From Armatimonadia bacterium (lineage in GTDB: Bacteria > Armatimonadota > Zipacnadia > Zipacnadales > UBA11051), in the NCBI GenBank assembly GCA_039683575.1, contig JBDKRC010000144.1:1-13432 (forward strand): a stretch of DNA of 13,432 nucleotides, given 5' to 3'. Position numbers and translations under genes: made by a program. The notes under the pieces were generated by a model, which searched no databases, was not told the origin of the DNA, and saw only the letters and a list, made by a program, of their open reading frames with translations. This document shows, piece after piece, positions 16 to 13,164 of the stretch. Each line of letters opens with the position of its first letter. Position 1 is the stretch's first letter.

Positions 16-2520
16 CTACTCCCCCCCCACCACCTTCCTCACGCCCACCGTCTCCGCCCCCGCCTTCCGCACCACCTCCACCCGCGCCTTTCCGCCCAGC
101 TTCACCTCATCCACCCTCTCCCCCACCTTCACCGCAAACCCACCCGCCGTCGCCGTAACCAACGGCAACTCCTTCACTCCTGGCTTCAGCGGATAGAACA
201 CATACGCCACCTGGCTCTCCCCATTCGCCTGCCACTCATACGTCGCCACCGGGATCGGCTCGCATTCCAGCCCGCTCTTGAGCGTCCACCCCAGCAGGAA
301 TGGGTCCTTCTGCCCCTTGATCACCTGCGCCCGCAGCCCCGCCTTCGCCACCGGGATGATCGCCAGGTTCGCCTTGTCGCCGTTGTCCGTCAGGATGGTC
401 TTCCCGTCCTCCAGCACCCGCGCCTCCGCCGGCCGCAGGTGGAAATACGCCCGGTAGTCGTGCAGCCGCTGATCCTTCGGCGTCAGCGTATCAATCACGA
501 TCCAGTAGTCCGGCTTCACGAACATGATCTCCCGCCGCTGAACCGCCACCCGCTCCTTCTTGGGCCCAAAGCCCTCGTCATACATCCCTGCGGCGTAGTC
601 AAACGCTTCGTTGCTGAACCACGGGTTATCCTGCGGCGCCTTGTTCACATAGCTGTCCCGCGCCTCGCCCCGCCGGTTCTGGCCCATCCCATCCACAAAC
701 ACCGTGCTATGCGCCGTAGCCCCGAGCACATACCGCCGCCAGTCCGACGCATCATAGGTATAAACGCCGGTATCAATCACCAGCCGGCTCCCATACGCGT
801 TCAACACAAACCCCAGCTTATCCTCGTGCTGGTGGCCATACCCGAACGGCCCGGCCTCGAAGGCGCAATACAGGTCCGCTGGCCCCCACCCGCCACGCAT
901 AGCGTATTGCCCTGCCCACTTGTAGGCATGCGACAGGCCCGCGGGCGCCTTCCCCTCGGCTCCCCTGGTCACCAGCCACTTCCAGTCCTCACGCCCCGGG
1001 AAGTACTTCAGCCCATCCGCGAGCGTCCTGCGCATGTCTGTGGGCCCGGAGTCGTTCCACGCCGGAGACGCCCCGTCGGGCGCCATCAGCCACATGTTGT
1101 AATCCCACATCCGCTCCAGCTTCGCCAGGTAATCAGCCGGCAGCGTCTGCCCGGTCAGCTTCGCGACCTCTACCAGACCCAGGAAGTTGTACAACGACAC
1201 CTGGTGGTAGCCCGGCGCCAGCTCAATCTGTGCCCCATCCGGATACACCTGCACATCAAGGTCCGCATACAGCCGTGCCACCGCCGTATCCCGCCAATCC
1301 GCCGCCTCCTTGAACTCCGGAAACAGCGCCCCCACATGATACAGCCCGTTGCACTCCATCGTCAGCCAGTTGCCCGAAGTCGGGTACTGCTTCAGATATC
1401 GCGCGTGCTCCACCATGGACTTGACCATGTCAATGATCGCGTCATCGGTGAAGCTTGGCGAAGACAAAAAGTAGAAGAACGTGTTCGGCCACGGCCCCGC
1501 CATCCGAATCCCGCACTCAATCGTCCGCCACCGCGAACCGGCCCCGTTGTTGACCTTGCCATTCGGAATCGGGCAGTCCCGCACCCAGTCCTGCAGGTTA
1601 TACACAAACTCCCGCGCGTACTTCTCATCCCCCGTCGCCCAGTACGCCCGCCCCAGTTGCGGCCACCAGTGGTGTCGGCTGAACTGCCACACCCACTCGT
1701 TGTTCACCGGGTTCGTCGGGTTGACCGTCCAGTCAATGTCCCCGCCCTTGAAGTCATACGGCACGCTACAGACCACATACCGCCGCTTCATGGCCTCCTC
1801 GGCCGCCCGCATGTCGGGCTTCGCCTCCGGCTGCTGCGGCCGGGCTCGCCAGTCAAAGCTCCACGGGTGCGGCAACCCCTTCAGATACTTCACATACTCC
1901 CGCCGCGCAGAGGCCCAGTCGCCCCTCCCCACCGCTTCCTTGACCGCTCCCAGCCCCTCCCGCTCCAGGTCCAGCGCCTCAAAGAACCCCTCGTCCGTCA
2001 GCCTCGGCCCCACCACCGGCCCGCGGTTCTCAAGCTTTACGTCATCCACGAAGACCACCGCCTCCGGGTTAGGCGTCTGCTCCCAACCCGTAGCTGTAAA
2101 CAGCATCCCGCCGATCTTGTCCCACCCCAGCGGCGTCCGCGCAGCCCCCAACTCTTCCCGCAGCCTGAACGTGAACTCCCGCCACGCCCCCGGCTGGACC
2201 GTAATCCGCGCCGAGTAGTAGTCCGAGCCCTCGGTCGCGTCATTCTCCGAAGCGATAATCATCATGAATGAGGCGCCCCCCAGCGTCTCCGTCCGCAGCC
2301 GCATCGTCAGCGTATCGAACCCGCTCCAGTCCCCCGGCACCTGCCCGAAGTTCACCGCCGACGTCTCGCCATGGTGCCAGCGCAGACACGCCGTCCCGCC
2401 ATGCGCGCCCACCTTCACGATCGTTGCCCCGCGCACTGGCTCGGTCTCGCCATAGATGACTTGCGCCCACAACACGCCGGGAATCAACAGAGAGAGGACT
2501 GCCGCAGTCAGAAAGCGCAT
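16..2520 (-). CDS. Secreted heparinase II/III-family polysaccharide lyase (heparinase III/PL12-like) with an N-terminal carbohydrate-binding-like beta-sandwich domain
   Basis: 834-aa ORF. Sec signal peptide MRFLTAAVLSLLIPGVLWA; RBS GAGGAG (2528-2533) 7 nt before ATG. Motifs recalled from heparinase III-type lyases: WVWQFSRHHWW, WRTIECGIR, SGNWLTME (Asn), QVYPDGAQIELAPGYH (Tyr), GHQHEDKLGF (His), DTGVYTY, AHSTVFVDG, RREIMFVKPDYWIVIDTL. The N-terminal ~150 aa (DWSGFDTL...WREFTF...GWDKI...VFVDDVKL) resemble a galactose-binding/CBM11-like fold. Substrate cannot be assigned from sequence. Confidence 0.88.
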   Translation of the reverse strand: MRFLTAAVLSLLIPGVLWAQVIYGETEPVRGATIVKVGAHGGTACLRWHHGETSAVNFGQVPGDWSGFDTLTMRLRTETLGGASFMMIIASENDATEGSDYYSARITVQPGAWREFTFRLREELGAARTPLGWDKIGGMLFTATGWEQTPNPEAVVFVDDVKLENRGPVVGPRLTDEGFFEALDLEREGLGAVKEAVGRGDWASARREYVKYLKGLPHPWSFDWRARPQQPEAKPDMRAAEEAMKRRYVVCSVPYDFKGGDIDWTVNPTNPVNNEWVWQFSRHHWWPQLGRAYWATGDEKYAREFVYNLQDWVRDCPIPNGKVNNGAGSRWRTIECGIRMAGPWPNTFFYFLSSPSFTDDAIIDMVKSMVEHARYLKQYPTSGNWLTMECNGLYHVGALFPEFKEAADWRDTAVARLYADLDVQVYPDGAQIELAPGYHQVSLYNFLGLVEVAKLTGQTLPADYLAKLERMWDYNMWLMAPDGASPAWNDSGPTDMRRTLADGLKYFPGREDWKWLVTRGAEGKAPAGLSHAYKWAGQYAMRGGWGPADLYCAFEAGPFGYGHQHEDKLGFVLNAYGSRLVIDTGVYTYDASDWRRYVLGATAHSTVFVDGMGQNRRGEARDSYVNKAPQDNPWFSNEAFDYAAGMYDEGFGPKKERVAVQRREIMFVKPDYWIVIDTLTPKDQRLHDYRAYFHLRPAEARVLEDGKTILTDNGDKANLAIIPVAKAGLRAQVIKGQKDPFLLGWTLKSGLECEPIPVATYEWQANGESQVAYVFYPLKPGVKELPLVTATAGGFAVKVGERVDEVKLGGKARVEVVRKAGAETVGVRKVVGGE

Positions 2521-2600: not shown

Positions 2601-3476
2601 TCAGCCGCCGAGCGCAATCGCGAAGATACCCACCAGCATCAGCGCCGTACCCGATGCCCGCCACACCAGGCCCTGCTCCTTGAGGGCTTTCGCGCCCAGT
2701 ATGACTCCGAATAGCAGGCCAATGTTGCGCAGTGACGCCACATACGCCACCGATCCGAGCTTCATGGCCGTCACAATCATGAAGTACGCCACGAACGACA
2801 CGACCATCACTATGAGGGCTGATTTCCAGTTGGCGCGCCACTCCAACGAGATGTCCTCGACGCGTCGCTGTCCAAACGTAAACAGCGTGAGAAACGCAAC
2901 CAGATACAGGTGCATGAGGCAGAGATAGGCCAGCGGCGAGTCCGCACGGACCGACCCTGCCTTGTCGAGCATGTGATACGCAGCTATCCCCACCGCTGCC
3001 AGCACTGCCATCCGCGACGCCGGTTGCAACATCTCCCGCCACGAGAAACCGCCATTGGCCCCGTTGCACGCCCCCACGCTCAGTACCAGGCTTCCGAGCA
3101 CGATCAACCCGATGCCGATGCCCCCGACCTCTGTAAGTCTCTCCCCCAGCAGCGGCCACGCGGCCACCGCGATGATCGCGGGCGCCAATCCACGAGACAG
3201 AGGGTACACATGCGACAGGTCGCCGCACGAGTAGCCCTTCCCCATCAGTGTGAGGTACGTCGCCTGGACCAGTCCACCCGCTACCGGAATGTACCACGGT
3301 CCGAAATTCGTGCCATGTAGCAGCATCCAAATGAGCGGTCCCAGCCAGACAATCGGGCTGACCGCCATCATGAGGAACATGAATGAGACTTGATCGCGGG
3401 CTTTCTTCGCCAGGAAGTTCCAGAAGGCATGCAGCACGGCAGAGCACAGCACCAGCAACAGCACGGAGAAACTCAT
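2601..3476 (-). CDS. DMT superfamily / EamA-family transporter
   Basis: 291-aa hydrophobic ORF with about 10 TM segments in two EamA repeats. Typical motifs SAVLHAFWNFLAK, Y..GDLSHVYPLSRG, LLGERL, AYVASLRNIGLLFGVILG...LKE. Ends in TGA at the expected domain end (…IALGG). Confidence 0.92.
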   Translation of the reverse strand: MSFSVLLLVLCSAVLHAFWNFLAKKARDQVSFMFLMMAVSPIVWLGPLIWMLLHGTNFGPWYIPVAGGLVQATYLTLMGKGYSCGDLSHVYPLSRGLAPAIIAVAAWPLLGERLTEVGGIGIGLIVLGSLVLSVGACNGANGGFSWREMLQPASRMAVLAAVGIAAYHMLDKAGSVRADSPLAYLCLMHLYLVAFLTLFTFGQRRVEDISLEWRANWKSALIVMVVSFVAYFMIVTAMKLGSVAYVASLRNIGLLFGVILGAKALKEQGLVWRASGTALMLVGIFAIALGG

Positions 3477-3506
3477 CTGCAGTCCAATCTACGACCTTCG
3501 TTCACG

Positions 3507-3567
3507 AAAACTGGGAATTGCCCTGGGGCGCCCGGCCTTCACCGCGCGCCCTCTGGCAATTCCCAGT
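3507..3567 (-). terminator. Long hairpin with short U-tract; probable intrinsic terminator of the peptidase-lipoprotein operon
   Basis: Perfect 13-bp inverted repeat ACTGGGAATTGCC (3510-3522) / GGCAATTCCCAGT (3555-3567), with inner pairing GGGCGC (3526-3531) / GCGCCC (3546-3551). On the minus strand it starts 22 nt after the lipoprotein stop and ends in TTTT (aaaa at 3507-3510). The U-tract is short. Confidence 0.6.
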
Positions 3568-3589
3568 CAGTAGCTCACAACTGAAGAGA

Positions 3590-4618
3590 CTATTCGGGAC
3601 TGGGCGGCACCTGCAGCCCCGCCACTGTGATTGTCACGAACTCGTTCGTCGGGGTAGTCGATACCTGGTTCGCCCAGTCAGTAACGATGTACTGCACCCG
3701 GTATGTCTGCGGATTCTGCTTCCCATCGGTCCCGTAGGGGTTGTTATTCGCCGGAAGCTCAGTCGTCGCCCGGTACGTTTCCTGCGTTCCCAACACCAGC
3801 GGCAACGTGATCCGGTATGAAGTCGTATCCGGCCGGAAGATCTCCGCCTGCACCGTCTTCACACCATCGCCGTCGGTGACCGCTACCGTAATGCTGACGT
3901 CCCCGCCGGTAGCCGGAAGTGACATCGGGGCGACCAGGAAGCTCGAAACGTCCGGGCTTCCCGCTTCTACCACAGTGATGTCAGACTCCGCCTCGACCGT
4001 ACCACACACCGCCCGCAGTTTGCCAGTCCCCTCCCGCGTGGCCGTGAAGATCACTTTCTTCGTCGAAGCGTCATAGCTGACCACGCCAACCCCGCCCGTG
4101 ACGTAGAACGTCGGCGTCACCGCAAGGGAGCCCGAGGAAGTCCGCACGGACGCAGTAAACGTTGCGCTGCCGTTCAGATCAACCTCAACCTCCTCTGGCG
4201 TAAGGTCAAGCACGCTCGGTGCCGGAGCGTCCACACGCAGCACCGTCACCATCACGCTCGTGGTGAGGTCCTTCTGCACCGGAACGCCGGTAACGGTCTG
4301 CTCGCCGTAAGTGGGCTCACCGATGGTATCAACCACGATTGTCTGGTTACCGACCGGGATCCCCCGGACGGTGAACGCTCCGGTTGTGCTCGTGGTCGCC
4401 ACGCCCAGTGGGCTCCCCGTCTCGCTCCGCACGATCACGGAAGCGCCCGAAATGCCCGATGTCGGGGCGTCGGCACGGACCACTCGTCCGGAGATCGTCC
4501 CGGTGTCGAGCGGATTGCCATCGTCGTGGGAGATCCCATCCCCACCGCCGCAGCCGCCCAGGACGAGAATGGCGAGGAGGATTGCGGCCAGGGTTGCGGC
4601 GAGCGGAAGACGCGTCAT
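3590..4618 (-). CDS. Lipoprotein with a carboxypeptidase-regulatory-like (transthyretin/CnaB-like) domain and two further Ig-like beta domains
   Basis: Preferred start is ATG 4618 (MTRLPLAATLAAILLAILVLGG-C) with AAAGGA about 10 nt upstream; the ORF track start is 4645. Lipobox LGG-C followed by a GGGDG linker. The segment TGTISGRVV…GISGASV…ATTSTTGAFTVRGIPVGNQTIVV is typical of CarboxypepD_reg-like domains. The rest is Thr/Val-rich beta sequence. Confidence 0.8.
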   Translation of the reverse strand: MTRLPLAATLAAILLAILVLGGCGGGDGISHDDGNPLDTGTISGRVVRADAPTSGISGASVIVRSETGSPLGVATTSTTGAFTVRGIPVGNQTIVVDTIGEPTYGEQTVTGVPVQKDLTTSVMVTVLRVDAPAPSVLDLTPEEVEVDLNGSATFTASVRTSSGSLAVTPTFYVTGGVGVVSYDASTKKVIFTATREGTGKLRAVCGTVEAESDITVVEAGSPDVSSFLVAPMSLPATGGDVSITVAVTDGDGVKTVQAEIFRPDTTSYRITLPLVLGTQETYRATTELPANNNPYGTDGKQNPQTYRVQYIVTDWANQVSTTPTNEFVTITVAGLQVPPSPE

Positions 4619-4672
4619 ACGTACTTCATCCTTTCCAGTGCCCACCGCGGCCGCGCGCGCGCGCCTTGACGG

Positions 4673-7600
4673 TTAGGGCGTAACCTTCAACGGGCTGATG
4701 GCCTTAACACTCTCACCCGACTCGCTGCGAGCGGTCACTTGCGCCAGGTACTGCCCTGCCGGCGCCCGCGTCCCCAGCTCCGTCCGGCCATCCCACAACA
4801 CCACATTATTCCCCGCCGGGCGCGTTTTCCCTTCTTCCACCAGCCGAACAACTCGCCCCGCCATGTTCATGATCGTAACATCCACCGCCGCAGCCGACGA
4901 CAGGTTCAGCGTCACCTGCGCGCCCCCGCCCCGCAGCGACTGGGCCGTGACGCCCTGCAGCATCAACTGGCCTGTCCGTTGCGTCGATACCGTCAACTGC
5001 AGGCTCCGCGTCGTCTCCCCCTCACGCGGCGTGAAGCTATAGCGTCCCACTGTCCGCAGGTATACGCTCTGCCCACCCGCCAGGTCCTTCAGGATTGCCG
5101 TTGCGCCCTTGGGAAGATGCGACAGGTCCGACGCCTTCAGCGTCACCGCCTGTCCCGCCTTGAGGTTCTCTATCTTCAGATTCCAGATTATATCGTTTGT
5201 GGAGGTCTGTGCAAGCGCCACACCATATCGCCCGCTGCCCTGCGTCCCCGGGCTGCTCACGCTGAGCACCGGCGCCCCTGTAGCCGGTGGCGGCTTGGCC
5301 AGCAGCACCTGCTTGCTCGCCGTCCCCACATAGCATGCCGCATCGGGCCCGGCCGCGCTGCCAATCTGCAGCGGCACCGACCATTCCACCTGCCACGGCC
5401 GCGCCGTGCGCCGCACCGCCTGCGTCCTCATGGTCCCGCTTGCGGCGCTGCTCACTCCCAGCGGCCGGCTAAGCGTCAGCGTGCAAGCCTTGCGCGCCAG
5501 CACCCAAAACCCCTGCCACGGCTGAATCAGCTTCGCTTCGCTGCCAACCGCCGGGTACGCCAACTCATAGACCTGCGCAGCGTCGTTGTAAGTCCACGCG
5601 AACGCGGCCATCACACCCGCCCCGTCCGCGCTTGTCAGGTCCATGGTGGCGCCGCTGTACGTCACAGTCGCCTCGGAAAAGTCTATCGTGGTGAAGAACG
5701 GGTTGGCAAGCTGGTGCCATCCCGGCGTCAAGTCGATCTCAAAGTCACCCGCGGGCGCCGACAGCCCGTCCGGGCTCACTGTCGTAGCCTGAGGCAGCTT
5801 CACCCAGAAACCCCTGCCGAGGTGCATCTGCAGCGTCTCCGGCACCGGTCGGCTCAGGGAATCGTAGAGGTACGCGCCACTCGACGGGGTCCACCGGCAG
5901 TAGCCGAAAGAGCCCGCCGGCAGCCCAAAGAACGTCGCCGGGTCACCGTCTGCAGGCACCGCCGGGGCGCCCATGAAGTGCAGCCCAGCCGCGAATGTTA
6001 TGTCGGTGTTCGAGTAGGACTGCACCGGCCCGATCCCCGTCAGGCTCCGATTCTCGTTACCCAGCGTATCCCGCACGCCAACGGCGTAGTAGTAACTGAC
6101 CCCGTCAGTGACCGCTGTATCGACATACTCGACAGTGCTGCTGGAGGTGATTGTGGCAATTGGCGTCAGGCTCGCAACCGAGTCAAAAGCCGTCCTTGAC
6201 CGGTAGACCCGGAACGAGGCGAAGTCCGCCGGAGCCGTGTAGGCACTCCAGGTCAAAACGATGGCCCCGCCACTGTCATCTGGCCTGTCGCTCACCCCAA
6301 GCCCGGCGACGGTTGCTGGCGGGCTGTCATTCAACGATTGCGTCGGTCCCACCAAGCTCGTGTCGGTCCACCGCGTGCCGTCAGTGACTCGCACCTTGTA
6401 GTAGTAGTCCGTCCCGTCCGTTACCGCGTTGTCTACATACCCCTCAGACCCCGGCGGCAGGCTCTTGAGCACCGTAAACGACCCGCTACCCCCTGTGCGG
6501 CGGTACACCTTGTAGGCTGTGACCGTATTGGAGCCCGCGCCATCGTCCGGCGACGTCTGCCACGTTAGCGTGATGCTGCCGCCATCGTCACCGCTCGTGT
6601 CCGCCGCCGCCAGATCCCGTGCCGCAGCCGGCGCCAGCGTCACCCCCAACGCCCGCGCGACATTGATCCGCCCGCCGCCAAGTCTCCCCGAGTACCCCGC
6701 ATTCAGCGAGTCAATGTTGTCGCCGCAACTCCGCACCCGCTCGATTACCTGCGCTGGCGTCCACGTCGGATTCTGGCTGATTATCAAGGCTGCCAGCCCT
6801 GCGACAAGCGGCGACGAAAACGACGTCCCGCTGTTGGTCTGGAAGTACTGGTTGAAGCCGCTTACCGTGGGGAAATAGGCCGCCGGGCCAAACAGCGCGT
6901 CCCCCGGTGCCATGACGTCGATGAAATGCGCCGTCGAGCTGTCGAAGTTGCTGTACGAGCTCTTGCGGTCATACCGGTCGGTCGCCCCTACGCCAATCAC
7001 GCAGTTGCTCGCCCAGACGTTCGTGCCGTCATTGCAGACCGGAGACTCCCAGGTGCTCGGCGCATCCGTAAGCTCGGCGCCGCTGTTACCACCGGCAACC
7101 ACCACCACACAACCCGCTTCATAGGCTGCCACGAGCGGCGCCGTGAACAGTTCCGTGTAATCGCCGCCGATGCTCAGATTGATCACATCGGCGCCCTTGG
7201 CCACCGCATAGTTGATCGCGTCAATTACGGTAGACACAGCCGTGCCGCCATCATCCGGGAATACCTGCAGCGGCATGATCTTGCAGCCCCAGGCCATCCC
7301 GGCCGTCCCATAGCTGTCATTCCCCAGCGCCCCCGCCAGCCCCGCCACCAGCGTCCCGTGGTTTACCTGCTCGTCGGCCTCACCGTTGTAGTCATCGTCC
7401 CTCCCATTGGGTGACGGGTTCGGATTGGCATTGTTGGAGTAGAAATCCCACCCGTTGACGTCGTCAATATAGCCGTTACCGTCGTCATCCCGCCCGTTCC
7501 CCGCTATCTCCCCGGGGTTGCGCCAGATCTTCCCGCTGAAGTCTGGATGGTCCATGTATACGCCCGAGTCTATGACCGCAATGACCACGCTGCTGCTGCC

Positions 7601-8053
7601 GGTCGTCACGTCCCAGCCCGCGGGACTCTGAATGATCGGGTGGTGCCACTGATCCGCGTACCGCGTATCATTGGGGACCAGCGCGGGGTACATCAGCAAA
7701 TCGGGTTCGGCCACGGCCACCGCCGGGTCCATCCGCAGGTCCCCTGCCATCTTCAGCACATCGCTGTTTGCCGGCAGATCCAGCGCATAGATTCGGTGCC
7801 CCAGCGAGCGCACCCGCCCGCTCTGCGCCTTGCCCAGCACCCCGGCCAGCTTCTGCGCATCCACACCCGGCCGCACCTGCACCAGCACGCGGTCGGCGAC
7901 CGCTAGACGCGCCTGCATTTTCGTCCCGTGCATCGTCCGCACCATCTTTGGCGAACCGATGGTCACGGTCTTCAGCGCGTCCGCTGCTGCCCCGGTCACT
8001 CCTGCGACCAAAAGCAAGAGCCCCAAAAGCAGCGGGCCGAAGGCCCGTAACAC
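4673..8053 (-). CDS. Secreted S8 (subtilisin-like) serine peptidase B with prodomain, two FN3-like repeats and a C-terminal FlgD-Ig-like domain (about 1126 aa)
   Basis: Catalytic motifs IAVIDSG (Asp), NHGTLVAG (His), VAGGNSG (oxyanion Asn), SGTSFSSPLVAG (Ser). Ca-binding insert NGRDDDGNGYIDDVNGWDF. C-terminus NMAGRVVR…WDGR…G…PAGQY. Start re-assigned to GTG 8053 (GGAGG just upstream with short spacing; signal peptide MLRAFGPLLLGLLLLVAGVTGAAA). The ORF-track N-terminus to 8398 overlaps the upstream paralog and looks like junk. The exact start is less certain than the product. Confidence 0.88.
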   Translation of the reverse strand: MLRAFGPLLLGLLLLVAGVTGAAADALKTVTIGSPKMVRTMHGTKMQARLAVADRVLVQVRPGVDAQKLAGVLGKAQSGRVRSLGHRIYALDLPANSDVLKMAGDLRMDPAVAVAEPDLLMYPALVPNDTRYADQWHHPIIQSPAGWDVTTGSSSVVIAVIDSGVYMDHPDFSGKIWRNPGEIAGNGRDDDGNGYIDDVNGWDFYSNNANPNPSPNGRDDDYNGEADEQVNHGTLVAGLAGALGNDSYGTAGMAWGCKIMPLQVFPDDGGTAVSTVIDAINYAVAKGADVINLSIGGDYTELFTAPLVAAYEAGCVVVVAGGNSGAELTDAPSTWESPVCNDGTNVWASNCVIGVGATDRYDRKSSYSNFDSSTAHFIDVMAPGDALFGPAAYFPTVSGFNQYFQTNSGTSFSSPLVAGLAALIISQNPTWTPAQVIERVRSCGDNIDSLNAGYSGRLGGGRINVARALGVTLAPAAARDLAAADTSGDDGGSITLTWQTSPDDGAGSNTVTAYKVYRRTGGSGSFTVLKSLPPGSEGYVDNAVTDGTDYYYKVRVTDGTRWTDTSLVGPTQSLNDSPPATVAGLGVSDRPDDSGGAIVLTWSAYTAPADFASFRVYRSRTAFDSVASLTPIATITSSSTVEYVDTAVTDGVSYYYAVGVRDTLGNENRSLTGIGPVQSYSNTDITFAAGLHFMGAPAVPADGDPATFFGLPAGSFGYCRWTPSSGAYLYDSLSRPVPETLQMHLGRGFWVKLPQATTVSPDGLSAPAGDFEIDLTPGWHQLANPFFTTIDFSEATVTYSGATMDLTSADGAGVMAAFAWTYNDAAQVYELAYPAVGSEAKLIQPWQGFWVLARKACTLTLSRPLGVSSAASGTMRTQAVRRTARPWQVEWSVPLQIGSAAGPDAACYVGTASKQVLLAKPPPATGAPVLSVSSPGTQGSGRYGVALAQTSTNDIIWNLKIENLKAGQAVTLKASDLSHLPKGATAILKDLAGGQSVYLRTVGRYSFTPREGETTRSLQLTVSTQRTGQLMLQGVTAQSLRGGGAQVTLNLSSAAAVDVTIMNMAGRVVRLVEEGKTRPAGNNVVLWDGRTELGTRAPAGQYLAQVTARSESGESVKAISPLKVTP

Positions 8054-8102
8054 GGACCTCCGGCTTAGCTGTTGAAGTGTGAGCGCGCGGGCGCAATTGT
8101 TG

Positions 8103-8216
8103 TTATCTGCGGAACGACAATCCTTGCACTGCATTGACAATCTGCCCGTCCTCGGTCCGGGCGCTGACTCTGACCAGATACACCCCGGCCGGGACCCGCA
8201 GCCCATTATCATTGCG
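8103..8216 (-). other. In-frame continuation of peptidase A beyond the TGA: 37 codons plus TAA that complete the FlgD-Ig-like domain
   Basis: Manual translation after TGA 8217-8219 gives RNDNGLRVPAGVYLVRVSARTEDGQIVNAVQGLSFRR, then TAA (8103-8105). It aligns without gaps to the last 37 aa of peptidase B (RTELGTRAPAGQYLAQVTARSESGESVKAISPLKVTP), 16/37 identical. Confidence 0.9.
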
Positions 8217-11200
8217 TCAATTCCACAGCTCCGTGCTGAGCCCTGCCTGGCTGACAGTGCTTCCGAGCCTCCGCACGGGCCGCCCGGCGATGTTAACCAC
8301 AGAGACCTCAACCTCCGCCGGTGCTGACAGAGAGTAGCTGATTTGCGCTCCTTCTGCTGTGGCTCCGGCTGCGAGGCTGCTGATTGCAAGCAAGTCACCG
8401 ACCTTTGAACTGATCTCGACTGTAAAGTCTCGCGTCGTGGCCTGTGGCGTCATGCTGAAGCTGTAGCTGCTCGTCGTCCGCATGTATACGGACTTCCCGC
8501 TCACCGTGTCGCGTAGGATCGGGCGGCAACCCCGCGGCAACTGTGACAGGTCCGGCCAGCTCAGCTTGACCTGCGCCCCTGCCTGCGCGCACGTCACGCG
8601 CGTCTGCCATTCCTGCTTGTCTCCCAGCGACTTCACAAAGCTCGTCGCGGACCGCGCCCCCTCACCGACAAAGGACAGGTCCACCCCTCCGGCAACCACC
8701 GGCGGGCTCGCGATCCCGTTCACGCTGGCAGGCTCGGAACAGACGCCCAGGAAATTATCAGTATCAGCGGCTCCGTCTACGGACGCCGAGAGCCGCATGG
8801 CCCAATCAACTGTAGCGGTTTGGGTAGCCGCGGGGAGCGCTGCCGAAGTGGCAACCGCGCGCGGATTGTCCAGGATCAAGTTGCCGCTGCGGGAGGCATA
8901 GAAGAAGAAGCCGTCGCCGCGGCGCATGGTCTGTTGAGAGAAGGGCAGCGATTCACTGACCAGCTTGTACCCCCGGGTGGTGTTGTCATAGATCCATGCA
9001 TAGCCGGCGGTCAATCCCTGGTCATTCGACTGCTCGAGCGTCAGTGAAGTTCCCGAAACCACCACTCGCGCCCCGACAATACTGACCTCGTCTACATACG
9101 GGTTCCCGAGCTGGTTCCAACCGGCCACAAAGGGGATCTCGGTGTCCCCGGTGGGGGCCGAACCGCTCAGGTTCAAAGTGAGCGCCGTCGCCGTCCGCAG
9201 CCAGTACCCCTTCCCCTCCGCCTGCGCCAACAGCGCCGTATCGGTGGCACTGGTCCCCGGGTACACCGCATACGTGTTAGTCGCCGGGTTATACCGGCAC
9301 AGCGTCGCGCCGTTGCTCACCAACTGGCTCAGGTCCATGTTCGGTATTTCCAGCCCGAGGCTGATCATGGACAGACCCGCCGGGAAGCTGAACGTGTAGT
9401 TCGGGTTCGCCCGCACCGGTCCCACCGCGTCCACCTGCGTCAGTTCATTCGACACGAGTTCGTTGTCCACCGCGGTCACGGCATAGTAGTAATCGGTGTT
9501 ATCTTCCACCGACCGGTCCTGGTACGAGGTCGCGGTCCGGTCGCTGACCCGTGCCAGCGGTTCCATGTCCAGCACGCTGCTGAAGTCTTCTTCCGACCGG
9601 TAGATGCGGAACTCTTTGAAGTCATCCGGCGCCACGAAGCCGCTCCAGCGCAGCACTATGCAGCCGCCCTCGTCGCCCTGCTTGTCCTCCGCCGTGAAGT
9701 TCACAGCCGGCGGCGCCAGGTCGTCCCGCGCCTGTGCCGGGCTGGTCACATCCGAGCTTGCCGACATCTTGGCGTCATACGCTATGACCTTGTAGTAGTA
9801 ATCCGTGCCATCATCAACCGGCGTATCCAGGTACGAGCTTATCCCCGGCGACACGCTGGCTATCTCGACAAACTGGCCCTCAGCCGTATCACTGCGCAAG
9901 ACCGCGTAACGGGTGATGTCGTTGGCGCCCCGGCCGTCATCCACCGACAGTCCCCAGGTGATCGTGATGCTCCCACCCTCATCGCCGGGCGTATCCTTGG
10001 CGGTCACCGACCGCGGCGCTCCGGGAGCGGTGTCCACGAAGCAAGCCGACGCCGACACCCGCCCGGCCCCCATCATCCCCACGAACAGCGGGTTGAGGCT
10101 GTTGATGTCAAGGCAGCTATTCACGAGCCGCTGCCGCACCGCGGACGGCGTGGCATTCGGCGTATCAGCCAAAATCAGCGATGCCAACCCCGTCACAATG
10201 GCCGCCGACGCCGAAGTCCCGTCAATCGCCCAGTAACTGTTGTGGAAGTAGCTTGAGCTGTACCCGGTGCTGTAGATGTCCTCTCCCGGCGCCATCACGT
10301 CGAGGAGGCTGCGGTGGGACTGGTCAATCACCGAGTACTGGGTTAGCGTGTCTTCGGCATCGACAGCGCCCACGCCGATCACAAAGTCATCCGTCAGCAT
10401 CGGCCCGTCATTGCAGACCGGTGACAACCACGTCGCCGAATCGTCCGTGAACCCTGCAGCGTATGCATCCGAGTAGGTCCAGTTCCAGCCGCGGTTACCG
10501 CCCGCCGCCACAATCACAACGCCCTGGTCGTACGCCCACTTGATCGGCGGCGTCCACTCGGGGACATAGAAGCTCGTGATGCTCAGGTTGACGATGTCCG
10601 CCCCGTTCGCCACCGCATACTCAAAGCCCTTGATGGCGGTGCTCGCTTCCGTCCCCTGGTCGGAGTAGATCTGCACGGGCATCAGCTTGCACTGCCAGTT
10701 CGCCCCGGCAACCCCAAGCGAGTTGTTGCCATTCGCCCCGATGATCCCCGCCATGTGCGTCCCGTGCTGCCGCACGTCCCAGTAGTAGTAAGCATCGTCA
10801 TTCGGGCTCGGATCGCCGTTGCCGTTGACGAAGTCGTAGCCATTCACATCATCAATGTAGCCGTTGTTGTCATCATCCAGACCATTGCCGGGCACTTCCC
10901 CCGCATTCGTCCAGAAGCGCCCCTGCAGGTCCTCGTGCAGAACATCCACGCCGCTGTCCACCACCGCCACTACAGTGCTGGCCGACCCCGTCTGCACATC
11001 CCAGGCCGCCGGCATGCCAATCTTGCTCCAGTGCCACTGCTGCGCAAACGACGGATCGTTGGGTATCCCGCAAACGTACGTCACCTGATCAGGCGAAGCC
11101 GACTTCACGATCGACTGCGCCCTCATCCGCGCCAGCCCGTCCGGCACACTCATGCCCTCAGGCAGTCCGATCAGATAAAGCCCCGGCGTCTTGAAGTCAT

Positions 11201-11477
11201 ACAGGAGGGTGCAGCCGGTAGTGGACAGCATCCGATCAAGCTGCGCCTGCCCAACCGTCGGCAGCAGCGATACGAGCACCTGTCCCGACATCGCGTAGTC
11301 ATACACGTTGCTCCAGTAACCCCAACTCCAGAGATACCGGGGCGACATCCGCTCTGTAGCCTTACCGTTGATGGTTGGGGGCGTCTGAGCCAGACACGCA
11401 AGTGGTATCGTGGCCACCAGGGCAACGAGCAACAACCGGCGCAGTGCAGTGTGGGAAGAAGAGACAATGGGGATCAT
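8217..11477 (-). CDS. Secreted S8 (subtilisin-like) serine peptidase A, paralog of the downstream gene; C-terminal FlgD-Ig-like domain interrupted by TGA (full frame extends to 8103)
   Basis: Catalytic motifs VAVVDSG, QHGTHMAG, AAGGNRG, DGTSASAAIVTG. Ca-binding insert NGLDDDNNGYIDDVNGYDF. Two FN3-like repeats. Start ATG 11477 has AGGAGG 7 nt upstream and gives a signal peptide (…LRRLLLVALVATIPLACLA-Q); the ORF track start is 11519. Length is 1086 aa to TGA, or 1124 aa if read to TAA 8103. Confidence 0.88.
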   Translation of the reverse strand: MIPIVSSSHTALRRLLLVALVATIPLACLAQTPPTINGKATERMSPRYLWSWGYWSNVYDYAMSGQVLVSLLPTVGQAQLDRMLSTTGCTLLYDFKTPGLYLIGLPEGMSVPDGLARMRAQSIVKSASPDQVTYVCGIPNDPSFAQQWHWSKIGMPAAWDVQTGSASTVVAVVDSGVDVLHEDLQGRFWTNAGEVPGNGLDDDNNGYIDDVNGYDFVNGNGDPSPNDDAYYYWDVRQHGTHMAGIIGANGNNSLGVAGANWQCKLMPVQIYSDQGTEASTAIKGFEYAVANGADIVNLSITSFYVPEWTPPIKWAYDQGVVIVAAGGNRGWNWTYSDAYAAGFTDDSATWLSPVCNDGPMLTDDFVIGVGAVDAEDTLTQYSVIDQSHRSLLDVMAPGEDIYSTGYSSSYFHNSYWAIDGTSASAAIVTGLASLILADTPNATPSAVRQRLVNSCLDINSLNPLFVGMMGAGRVSASACFVDTAPGAPRSVTAKDTPGDEGGSITITWGLSVDDGRGANDITRYAVLRSDTAEGQFVEIASVSPGISSYLDTPVDDGTDYYYKVIAYDAKMSASSDVTSPAQARDDLAPPAVNFTAEDKQGDEGGCIVLRWSGFVAPDDFKEFRIYRSEEDFSSVLDMEPLARVSDRTATSYQDRSVEDNTDYYYAVTAVDNELVSNELTQVDAVGPVRANPNYTFSFPAGLSMISLGLEIPNMDLSQLVSNGATLCRYNPATNTYAVYPGTSATDTALLAQAEGKGYWLRTATALTLNLSGSAPTGDTEIPFVAGWNQLGNPYVDEVSIVGARVVVSGTSLTLEQSNDQGLTAGYAWIYDNTTRGYKLVSESLPFSQQTMRRGDGFFFYASRSGNLILDNPRAVATSAALPAATQTATVDWAMRLSASVDGAADTDNFLGVCSEPASVNGIASPPVVAGGVDLSFVGEGARSATSFVKSLGDKQEWQTRVTCAQAGAQVKLSWPDLSQLPRGCRPILRDTVSGKSVYMRTTSSYSFSMTPQATTRDFTVEISSKVGDLLAISSLAAGATAEGAQISYSLSAPAEVEVSVVNIAGRPVRRLGSTVSQAGLSTELWN

Positions 11478-11536
11478 AGCGTGGCCTCCTGGTGCTACAA
11501 GTGCGACAGGGTACGACACGCAAAGACGTCAAGAAG

Positions 11537-11904: not shown

Positions 11905-13164
11905 TCACTCCTCCGCGCACACCTCCACCGCCCGCAAAAACCCCGCCCCAATCGCTCCTGCCACCGCCACGCCACCCGCCAGCAACACCGCCGGCAGGTA
12001 CGACCCCGTCGCATCCGCCATCGCCCCCGCCACCACCGGCCCCAGCGCCTGTCCTACGCCCAGAAACAGCGTCACAAACCCCAGCGCCGCCGGTGCCATT
12101 CGCGCCCCCAGCATGTCCCCACACTGCGCCGCCACCACCGCCGGAATGCTCCACGCCGTCAACCCGAACAGCACCGCCGACAGCGTGAATCCCGCCGACA
12201 CCGGCCACAGCGCAAACAGCGCGTACGAGAGCGCCTGGATCATATAGATGATCACCATGGTATACTTGCGCCCGATTCGGTCCGACACACTCCCCCAAAG
12301 CAGCCCGCACGCCAGGCTCAGCCACCCCATCATCATGAACAGGTTCCCCGCCGCCTGGGTCGTATAGCCGCCCTCCGCAATCAGCGCCTTGTTGAAGAAC
12401 GTCATGTATACCAGATACGAGAACCCATACGCCACATACACAATCCCCAGGTGCCACACCGCCCCCGACTTGTACACCGCTCCCCAGTCCAGCGGCGCCG
12501 GACTGCCTGACGTCGCCGCGGGCACAGCCGTCTCCTCCGCCCCTACCGGCAGCAGCCCCATGTCCTGCGGCCGCCTGCGCAGCAAGGCCAGCGACAGGAA
12601 CGCAATCGCAATCCCCAGCCCTCCGCACCACAGCCAGCAAACCCGCCACCCGTACCCCCCATACATCGCGAGCAGCGCCGGCACACCCGGCCCCATCGTT
12701 ATCAGCGCCAGTGAAGACCCTGAAACCGCGATCCCCGACGCCAGCCCCCGCCTCCGCAGCGCAAACCACGCCGGCACCAGCCCGAGCACCGGCACATTTG
12801 TCGCCCCGCTGCCAATCCCGCTGACCGCCCGCCAGAGCATCGCCTCAGGAAAATTCGGCGCCAGCCCCGTCAGAACCATGGCCGCTCCGGTCACAAACAC
12901 CCCTGCCACAATCACGCGGCAAGGCCCAAACCGCGACGCCAGCGCCCCGCCAATCAGCGCCAGCACCAGATACCCCGTCAGATTCGCCGTAGCCAGCGCC
13001 CCCGCAGCCATGTTATCGAGCCCCAGCCCCCTCTGCATCGCGGGCAGGATCATCGAATACCCCATCCGGGCCATGCCCAGTGAGGTAAACACCCCCAAGG
13101 TCCCCACGCCCAGAACCACCCACCCATAGTGCACTCGCGGCTTCAAAGCCTTCTCAGCTTCCAT
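11905..13164 (-). CDS. MFS transporter (YbfB/YjiJ-like, MFS_4/MFS_1)
   Basis: 419 aa with about 12 TM segments. N-terminal YGWVV…SLGMARMGYSMILPAM…AGALATANLTGYL. Motif A variants GALASRFGPCR and GSVSDRIGRK; WF..RRRGLASGI. Confidence 0.93.
   Translation of the reverse strand: MEAEKALKPRVHYGWVVLGVGTLGVFTSLGMARMGYSMILPAMQRGLGLDNMAAGALATANLTGYLVLALIGGALASRFGPCRVIVAGVFVTGAAMVLTGLAPNFPEAMLWRAVSGIGSGATNVPVLGLVPAWFALRRRGLASGIAVSGSSLALITMGPGVPALLAMYGGYGWRVCWLWCGGLGIAIAFLSLALLRRRPQDMGLLPVGAEETAVPAATSGSPAPLDWGAVYKSGAVWHLGIVYVAYGFSYLVYMTFFNKALIAEGGYTTQAAGNLFMMMGWLSLACGLLWGSVSDRIGRKYTMVIIYMIQALSYALFALWPVSAGFTLSAVLFGLTAWSIPAVVAAQCGDMLGARMAPAALGFVTLFLGVGQALGPVVAGAMADATGSYLPAVLLAGGVAVAGAIGAGFLRAVEVCAEE

Follow-up and report, generated by a model that had tools for sequence, protein, structure and literature searches.

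A probable young premature stop in the subtilase gene of an Armatimonadia bacterium that uses TGA as an ordinary terminator

Peptidase A, an S8 family peptidase of an Armatimonadia bacterium, has an in-frame TGA codon within its C-terminal domain, and the reading frame beyond that codon stays open up to a TAA. Is this TGA a stop, an error in the assembled sequence, or a codon that the cell reads as an amino acid? The window in which it lies, meaning the whole stretch of DNA that was analyzed, is the complete 13,432-base contig C144 of an assembly here called G000 (6.23 Mb in 352 contigs, 63.5% G+C, 96% complete). A first-pass annotation, made from the letters of the window alone, had pointed to the TGA and, as its cause, had put a nonsense change of one base in the recent past, or else a base-call error, ahead of programmed readthrough. 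Our preferred explanation, to which we assign a probability of about 0.6, is that the TGA arose by a recent change of a Gly codon, is private to this lineage, and is read as an ordinary stop by release factor 2 (RF2) in what is otherwise a normal gene for a secreted S8 peptidase.

On the minus strand, the sequence at the stop reads ...GAG CTG TGG AAT TGA CGC AAT GAT AAT GGG.... The open frame noticed earlier is present, with the TGA at 8219-8217 followed by 37 sense codons and a TAA at 8105-8103. Peptidase A comprises 1086 codons, the TGA, and these 37 codons; reading through would give 1124 amino acids, compared with 1126 for peptidase B, an intact paralog encoded in the same window. Our own count on the translations agreed with the figures given earlier for the two tails: each has 37 amino acids, they align without gaps, 16 residues are identical, and the TGA faces the Gly of the WDGR motif of peptidase B.

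The translation of peptidase A has a signal-peptide-like N-terminus, a weak prodomain match, an S8 subtilase domain, a beta-rich middle region, and a C-terminal immunoglobulin-like (Ig-like) domain, the first five strands of which are encoded before the TGA. The subtilase domain (Peptidase_S8, PF00082) was matched at residues 167-455 with an E value of 1.5e-45 and 156.2 bits (cut-off, 21.8). Within the translation the motifs DSGVD, HGTH, and GTSAS are legible, which we take to be the Asp/His/Ser catalytic triad. At the C-terminus, a FlgD_ig match (35.8 bits; gathering cut-off, 27) covers residues 1044-1109 of 1124 and has the TGA within it. Because this match spans the stop, the tail must be genuine sequence of the domain, and its frame is not open by chance.

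The position of the break within the fold can be read from an AlphaFold2 model of P0027, a close relative of peptidase A, built on a 14-sequence alignment (mean predicted local distance difference test score, 89.3). In the last domain of P0027, strands at 138-145, 150-156, 160-167, 173-182, and 185-191 precede the site, a loop at 192-203 opens with Asn192-Gly193, and the final strands lie at 204-213 and 219-228. The stop replaces Gly193 in this numbering and leaves a product that lacks the last two of seven beta-strands, so the tail domain should not form.

We compared the site with its equivalents in relatives. P0027, a 230-amino-acid C-terminal fragment from another metagenome-assembled genome (MAG), is identical to the window product at 224 of 229 positions (~98%); it has Gly at the place of the TGA (...STALWNGRNDNG...) and the same residue at 37 of 37 tail positions. 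P0002 and P0028 (1120 amino acids) are 88% identical over the last 325 amino acids, read WNG at the place of the TGA, and differ at 2 of the 37 tail residues. Gly therefore occupies the site in all three near-identical sequences that cover it. Among 19 ortholog loci, the best ones taken one per related genome, the position aligned with the TGA holds G in 10, Q in 4, C in 2, A in 2, and H in 1, and in none is there a stop. These orthologs are only 38 to 52% identical in the C-terminal 113 amino acids, so the closer relatives weigh more. All 40 related genomes searched had matches to peptidase A, and among the matches listed (373 more lie beyond them) the stop occurs only in G000's own. The truncated 1086-amino-acid product in its exact form (P0024) is recorded from one contig only, that of the window. 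Three members of its protein cluster are named by their source 'MAG: S8 family serine peptidase, partial [Armatimonadia bacterium].' The TGA is private to this assembly.

The Gly in P0027, P0002, and P0028 supports the earlier ranking of a recent nonsense change or base-call error in first place. Programmed readthrough, which the first-pass annotation had also raised, found no support, with a stop in 0 of 19 orthologs and 0 of 3 close relatives. The annotation had named a sense codon in close orthologs as evidence against recoding, and these three relatives carry one. As a general rule for a conserved frame past a stop, a sense codon in a 98% identical relative indicates a young change and not recoding.

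Elsewhere in the genome, TGA is used in the normal way. The RF2 gene prfB is present (497.8 bits; cut-off, 370), and in a crude set of 2464 long coding-like open reading frames (ORFs), made without a gene caller, the terminator is TAG for 1253, TGA for 817, and TAA for 394. Within the window, the DMT and MFS transporter genes end in TGA, as had been reported. A search with aragorn found 42 tRNAs, among which the anticodon UCA occurred only in tRNA-Sec and no Gly or Trp tRNA had it. Coding-like sequence directly past the stop was not commoner for TGA (33 of 341) than for TAG (63 of 592) or TAA (20 of 185). There are 40 FlgD_ig matches genome-wide; a stop lies inside that of peptidase A only, and the other 39 are intact. 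The 43 ABC_tran matches all lack an internal stop, which brings the total to 1 stop in 83 domain matches and argues against broken frames being common in the assembly. In the 33 FlgD_ig copies that are in register, the codon at the place of the TGA is GGC in 16, GGG in 10, GGT in 4, CTA or CTG in 2, and TGA in 1. TGA is an ordinary stop in G000, with no different reading.

The earlier judgment that genome-wide recoding is unlikely is now firmer, given RF2, the stop usage, and the 39 intact domain copies. A programmed, conserved readthrough, or a changed code in which UGA stands for Gly or Trp throughout, draws on nothing but the open, domain-completing frame past the stop. It is already refuted by the sense codon in close orthologs, and the RF2 gene, the share of long ORFs that end in TGA, the lack of a Gly or Trp tRNA(UCA) among the tRNAs found, and the absence of TGA from the 39 other FlgD_ig copies also stand against it; we put its probability close to zero. 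The UGA-reassigned codes of tables 4 and 25 were rejected on the same grounds, with RF2 present, TGA used as a terminator, and the UCA anticodon confined to tRNA-Sec.

The commonest stop among the long coding-like frames of G000 is TAG, which is unusual in a bacterium of 63.5% G+C. Aragorn also called a 95-nt tRNA-like gene at C115:11751-11845, with an 8-nt anticodon loop, the anticodon 'acgg' (Arg/Pro), 73.7% G+C, and a long extra arm; the call may be spurious, or the gene may encode a tRNA of the quadruplet type.

If the TGA is a recent private change, its simplest origin would be a single G-to-T substitution on the coding strand, from GGA to TGA. GGA accounts for 15 of the 99 Gly codons of peptidase A, which makes a one-step origin plausible. 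RF2 would terminate translation at the TGA, and the product would end in ...ELWN. Lacking the loop and the last two of seven strands, the tail domain would probably be unable to fold, and any sorting or surface attachment that it provides would be lost. The 37 downstream codons would then be intact only because the change is too young for decay. The locus resembles an ordinary nonsense allele or nascent pseudogene: it has a single stop in a domain-complete frame, the sense codon of its relatives is one step away, the stop is not conserved, and the codon is a normal terminator in the genome. By comparison with such alleles, the only unusual point is the presence in G000 of selenocysteine (Sec) machinery and of a tRNA-Trp with a 4-bp anticodon stem. 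What the locus holds is an ordinary, very young premature stop or else an error.

Public sequencing runs gave a partial view of the locus. Parts of the stretch were found in wastewater, sludge, and digester metagenome runs, with 0.45 as the best share of words, and four runs (X1, X3, X6, and X7) were compared as assembled contigs. Contigs over the TGA site came from X1 (7002-8339), X6 (8201-8448), and the RNA-library run X7 (8196-8656); the pieces of X3 were the most like G000 and included no contig over the TGA site. The X1, X6, and X7 contigs all have T>G at 8230, a Glu-to-Ala change that is the P0027-type allele, so they say nothing about G000's own strain. Their tallies each contain one A>C place outside the differences listed, and the tally of X3 contains none. 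An A>C at plus-strand 8219 would equal a change of TGA to GGA, and we treat these tallied places as a weak hint of a Gly codon at 8219 and not as a reading of it.

Several observations weigh against a recent change that is read as a plain stop. The TGA is known from the consensus of one contig only, which is compatible with a consensus error, and the allele occurs in no other data set searched; a search for shorter protein fragments from other assemblies gave 4 matches, the best 55% identical and none near-identical. The relatives' codon is known as protein only, so we infer the ancestral GGA, and a scan of metagenome contigs with P0027 gave 46 loci, the best 53% identical, with no DNA of a close relative among them. 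The differences listed for the runs (51 more lie beyond them) include none at 8217-8219, so the contigs of X1, X6, and X7 are no evidence on the TGA either way. The RNA after the UGA is unusually structured (-41.4 kcal/mol, z=-3.09; z=-2.6 in a second run), and the Sec machinery and the 4-bp-stem tRNA-Trp could soften the UGA.

The main rival is a consensus, base-call, or assembly error, in which case the cells carry a Gly codon and the gene is intact. An error would fit an allele seen on one contig only, Gly in every near-identical sequence that covers the site, and a tail without any decay. The locus also assembles poorly across MAGs: P0005, P0025, and P0026, near-identical sequences from other MAGs that share the start Met of peptidase A, each break off inside the gene. 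Strain variation, such as T>G at 8230 and the 9-nt indels at 8090-8096, can yield a mixed consensus, and the unlisted A>C in each of X1, X6, and X7, with none in X3, adds its weak hint. On the other side, the assembly is clean where it was sampled (1 stop in 83 domain matches), and real nonsense polymorphisms in dispensable genes for secreted proteins outnumber substitution errors in a consensus. We place a real change at about 0.6 and regard an error as possible, if on balance unlikely.

Other rivals accept the UGA as real and have it decoded in part. The only tRNA-Trp(CCA) detected in G000 (C229:3921-3997, minus strand; L083:72-148) has a C27-U43 mismatch atop the anticodon stem, which leaves 4 bp, together with a 7-nt loop and the normal A9 and G24. 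This stem was read from the aragorn drawing and from an Infernal alignment in which the first anticodon-stem pair is marked as nonstandard. In PMC13092985, the 4-bp-stem form is defined by an unpaired 27:43, a 7-nt loop, and no A9C or G24A. We compared 30 tRNA-Trp genes of this order, from G000 and from 29 of the 37 relatives that had a match; the form is confined to G000 and G004, and A27:U43 is found in the three genus mates of G000. According to the same article, 8.9% of the tRNA-Trp(CCA) genes of bacteria are of this form, which is associated with lower UGA stop usage, and overexpression raised UGA readthrough ~2.5-fold in an E. coli reporter (PMC13092985). UGAC is a low-efficiency stop signal in E. 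coli (Poole et al. 1995, as cited in PMC11126948).

A real but leaky UGA-C would be read in part as Trp by this sole tRNA-Trp(CCA), and the cell would make mostly truncated enzyme and some full-length enzyme. The C27-U43 stem with a normal A9 and G24, the readthrough and lower UGA usage reported in PMC13092985, and the UGAC context described as weak in PMC11126948 all speak for such leakage. The site also falls within a loop at which orthologs accept G, C, Q, A, or H, and in-frame stops within 20 codons are slightly commoner after TGA (46.8% of 810 ORFs) than after TAG (39.8% of 1233) or TAA (40.4% of 386). However, the TGA is not conserved, so nothing suggests selection for readthrough; RF2 is present and a third of the long ORFs end in TGA; coding-like sequence is no commoner past TGA than past the other stops; the effect at native tRNA levels lay outside the reporter test, by the article's own statement (PMC13092985); and G004 shares the tRNA form, yet its ortholog has Gly. 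Some insertion of Trp at the UGA is conceivable, but nothing points to a substantial amount, and we think leakage that matters improbable. Like Blastocrithidia-like 4-bp-stem tRNA-Trp(CCA), the tRNA of G000 has an unpaired 27:43 and a normal A9 and G24, and the stop concerned is UGA; unlike that case, there is no reassignment, RF2 and abundant UGA stops are present, and a single nonconserved in-frame UGA is at issue.

The first-pass annotation had dismissed Sec. That outcome was right, with Gly in the closest relatives, but a full sel machinery and a marginal hairpin resembling a Sec insertion sequence (SECIS) had not been foreseen. The search for selA, selB, and selC that it had proposed turned up selA, selB, selD, and tRNA-Sec in a cluster at C331:2902-8131, composed of selA (2902-4302; 543.4 bits), selD (4476-5396; 387.3 bits), selB (6043-7923; 373.2 bits), and tRNA-Sec (8036-8131), with all three gene scores above curated cut-offs. 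The selD gene has no internal stop. No match to the formate dehydrogenase alpha subunit in G000 rose above the cut-off of TIGR01591, and TIGR01553 gave no match. A screen for in-frame stops by GC position returned 185 TGA, 335 TAG, and 57 TAA candidates, and one by codon usage plus hairpin returned 11 candidates and no convincing selenoprotein gene. Five of these 11 were translated and resembled antisense frames or, once, a natural stop (an integrase-like tail). Both screens missed the known TGA site and hence give no evidence that selenoproteins are absent. The sel cluster on C331 is complete, yet no selenoprotein gene was identified by these screens.

At the RNA level, the z=-2.6 fold after the UGA is the lowest of the 33 paralogous domain copies. 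The long hairpin predicted in the tail-coding RNA is probably due to chance; judged from the protein sequences, the Val-to-Ala change in P0002 and P0028 would break one of its stem pairs. The SECIS check suggested earlier yielded one small hairpin, which passes marginally (-7.6 kcal/mol; threshold, -7.5) under published bacterial constraints (PMC13188914, Fig. 2 legend). The same test is passed by 6 of 32 paralog sites and by 143 of 2000 random genome positions. The minimum-energy fold does not contain this hairpin and has its apical loop 44 nt from the UGA. In Rfam, the region 7600-8700 had two chance-level matches at E values up to 10 and none at the TGA site.

Could SelB and tRNA-Sec insert Sec at the UGA by way of a hairpin in the tail-coding RNA? 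Like bacterial selenoprotein genes, the locus has an in-frame UGA, an open conserved frame past the stop, a full sel set, here gathered on one contig, and a hairpin that formally fits the constraints of PMC13188914. The low fold z-score and the Cys at the site in the more distant orthologs L012, L014, and P0006 can be counted on the same side. Unlike such genes, it has closest homologs (P0027, P0002, and P0028) with Gly and not Cys or Sec, it offers no redox motif, it belongs to no known selenoprotein family, its setting is an extracellular Ig-like domain, and its UGA is not conserved. The partner Cys of the orthologs with YLVCV or YLICL is Arg in peptidase A, which leaves a Sec here with no partner. 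The hairpin itself sits at the threshold with 3 G-U pairs, is nonspecific by the paralog and random-site counts, and lies outside the minimum-energy fold. We judge Sec insertion to be very unlikely.

Combined, these two routes would amount to a real UGA that is partly decoded, mainly as Trp through the 4-bp-stem tRNA-Trp and the UGA-C context and to a lesser degree as Sec through the SECIS-like hairpin, a scenario to which we give little credence. If it were true, the strain would make a free truncated protease plus a minor full-length form that bears the tail, and the locus would be a natural case in which inherently leaky decoding of UGA buffers a nonsense codon that has only just arisen.

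With a recent premature stop as the preferred reading, the annotation of peptidase A should state a peptidase whose frame is broken by a premature stop, or possibly by a sequencing error. It should name neither a recoded gene nor a selenoprotein, and the 37-codon tail should receive no gene entry of its own. Some of the side observations may outweigh the stop itself, namely, the 4-bp-stem tRNA-Trp that is absent from genus mates, TAG as the commonest stop, the sel operon without an identified selenoprotein, and the ~40 Ig-like tails in a genome in which no PorU was found.

The tail domain belongs to a family that is widespread in G000. About 40 large proteins of secreted type end in a FlgD-Ig-like domain, for example, on contigs C79, C275, C196, and C238; two such ends lie in the window, at 4721-4930 and 8151-8351. 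This recurrence at ~40 protein ends suggests that the domain serves in some way to sort or anchor proteins, a function that the truncated product would have lost. In Armatimonadia, it may represent a C-terminal tag of its own kind for sorting or anchoring. Foldseek on the PDB returned generic Ig-like sandwiches only, including PorU (6za2_A) and the FlgD hook cap (7eha_C). The tail is like the sorting domain of type A of the type IX secretion system (T9SS; TIGR04183) and like FlgD_ig (PF13860) in being a C-terminal beta-sandwich of ~80 amino acids with 40 matches in one genome, and it is matched weakly by Por_Secre_tail and by the PorU and PorZ models in their C-terminal parts. Unlike T9SS signals, however, it stays below the cut-off of 23 for the NCBIfam model Por_Secre_tail (TIGR04183), with 20.4 bits for the window protein and 22.1 bits for P0027. 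The phylum is Armatimonadota and not Bacteroidota, and a search of the genome for the PorU sortase, the one T9SS component covered, gave as its best NF033707 match 24.7 bits against a cut-off of 420, in C-terminal parts of the model only. Given the scores below the cut-off and no PorU found, the tail domain should not be filed as a T9SS signal. A literature search on this domain in Armatimonadetes, judged by title and the start of the abstract, gave nothing relevant.

In three of the orthologs (L012 in G003 and L014 in G002, both from the genus of G000, and P0006), the Cys at the place equivalent to the TGA is accompanied by another Cys in the strand that follows (YLVCV or YLICL), which suggests a disulfide in the tail domain of these species.

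The genes of the window that have Pfam matches all lie on the minus strand, and the features of the locus are collected in Table 1.

Table 1. Features of the 13,432-base window, by position
Feature	Position	Strand	Basis or remark
Heparinase II/III	16-2520	-	Pfam match
EamA (DMT) transporter	2601-3476	-	Pfam match; terminator TGA
CarboxypepD_reg-domain protein	3590-4645	-	Pfam match
Peptidase B, paralog of A, intact, 1126 amino acids	4673-8053	-	GTG 8053; GGAGG before start; TAA 4675-4673
Peptidase A, including tail beyond TGA	8103-11477	-	ATG 11477 to TAA 8105-8103
TAA, putative ancestral stop of peptidase A	8103-8105	-	Sequence
37-codon tail past TGA, RNDNGLRVPAGVYLVRVSARTEDGQIVNAVQGLSFRR	8106-8216	-	Loop and last two beta-strands of FlgD-Ig-like domain
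Tail-encoded peptides VPAGVYLVR and TEDGQIVNAVQGLSFR	Beyond TGA	-	Translation
Long imperfect RNA hairpin in tail-coding RNA	8131-8215	-	Fold prediction
FlgD_ig (PF13860) match across TGA	8151-8351	-	38.2 bits; profile positions 11-78 of 79; '1 TGA' inside
Small SECIS-like hairpin, 7 bp including 3 G-U, loop GUGUA, 33 nt past UGA	8172-8190	-	-7.6 kcal/mol
In-frame TGA, next base C	8217-8219	-	Gly at equivalent place in closest relatives
Peptidase A frame before stop, 1086 codons	8220-11477	-	Translation, Pfam
Ribosome-binding site AGGAGG, 7 nt upstream of ATG 11477	11485-11490	-	Sequence
MFS transporter	11905-13164	-	Pfam match; terminator TGA
TrAA12-like frame, cut by contig end	Contig end	-	Pfam match

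Between peptidases A and B, the 49-nt spacer that leads up to the GGAGG varies in length among strains: at 8090-8096, the X1 and X6 contigs carry 9-base GC-rich insertions relative to the window. Contigs of X7, a metatranscriptome library, cover much of peptidase A (window 8196-9998) at 95 to 99% identity, a weak hint that the gene is transcribed, as such libraries can contain DNA. In many of the 40 related genomes, a weaker second match to peptidase A lies near the best one on the same contig, among the matches listed, as on G003:C53, G002:C6, and G019:C16. This arrangement suggests that the S8 peptidase tandem, with A followed by B (window 4673-11477), is conserved in relatives.

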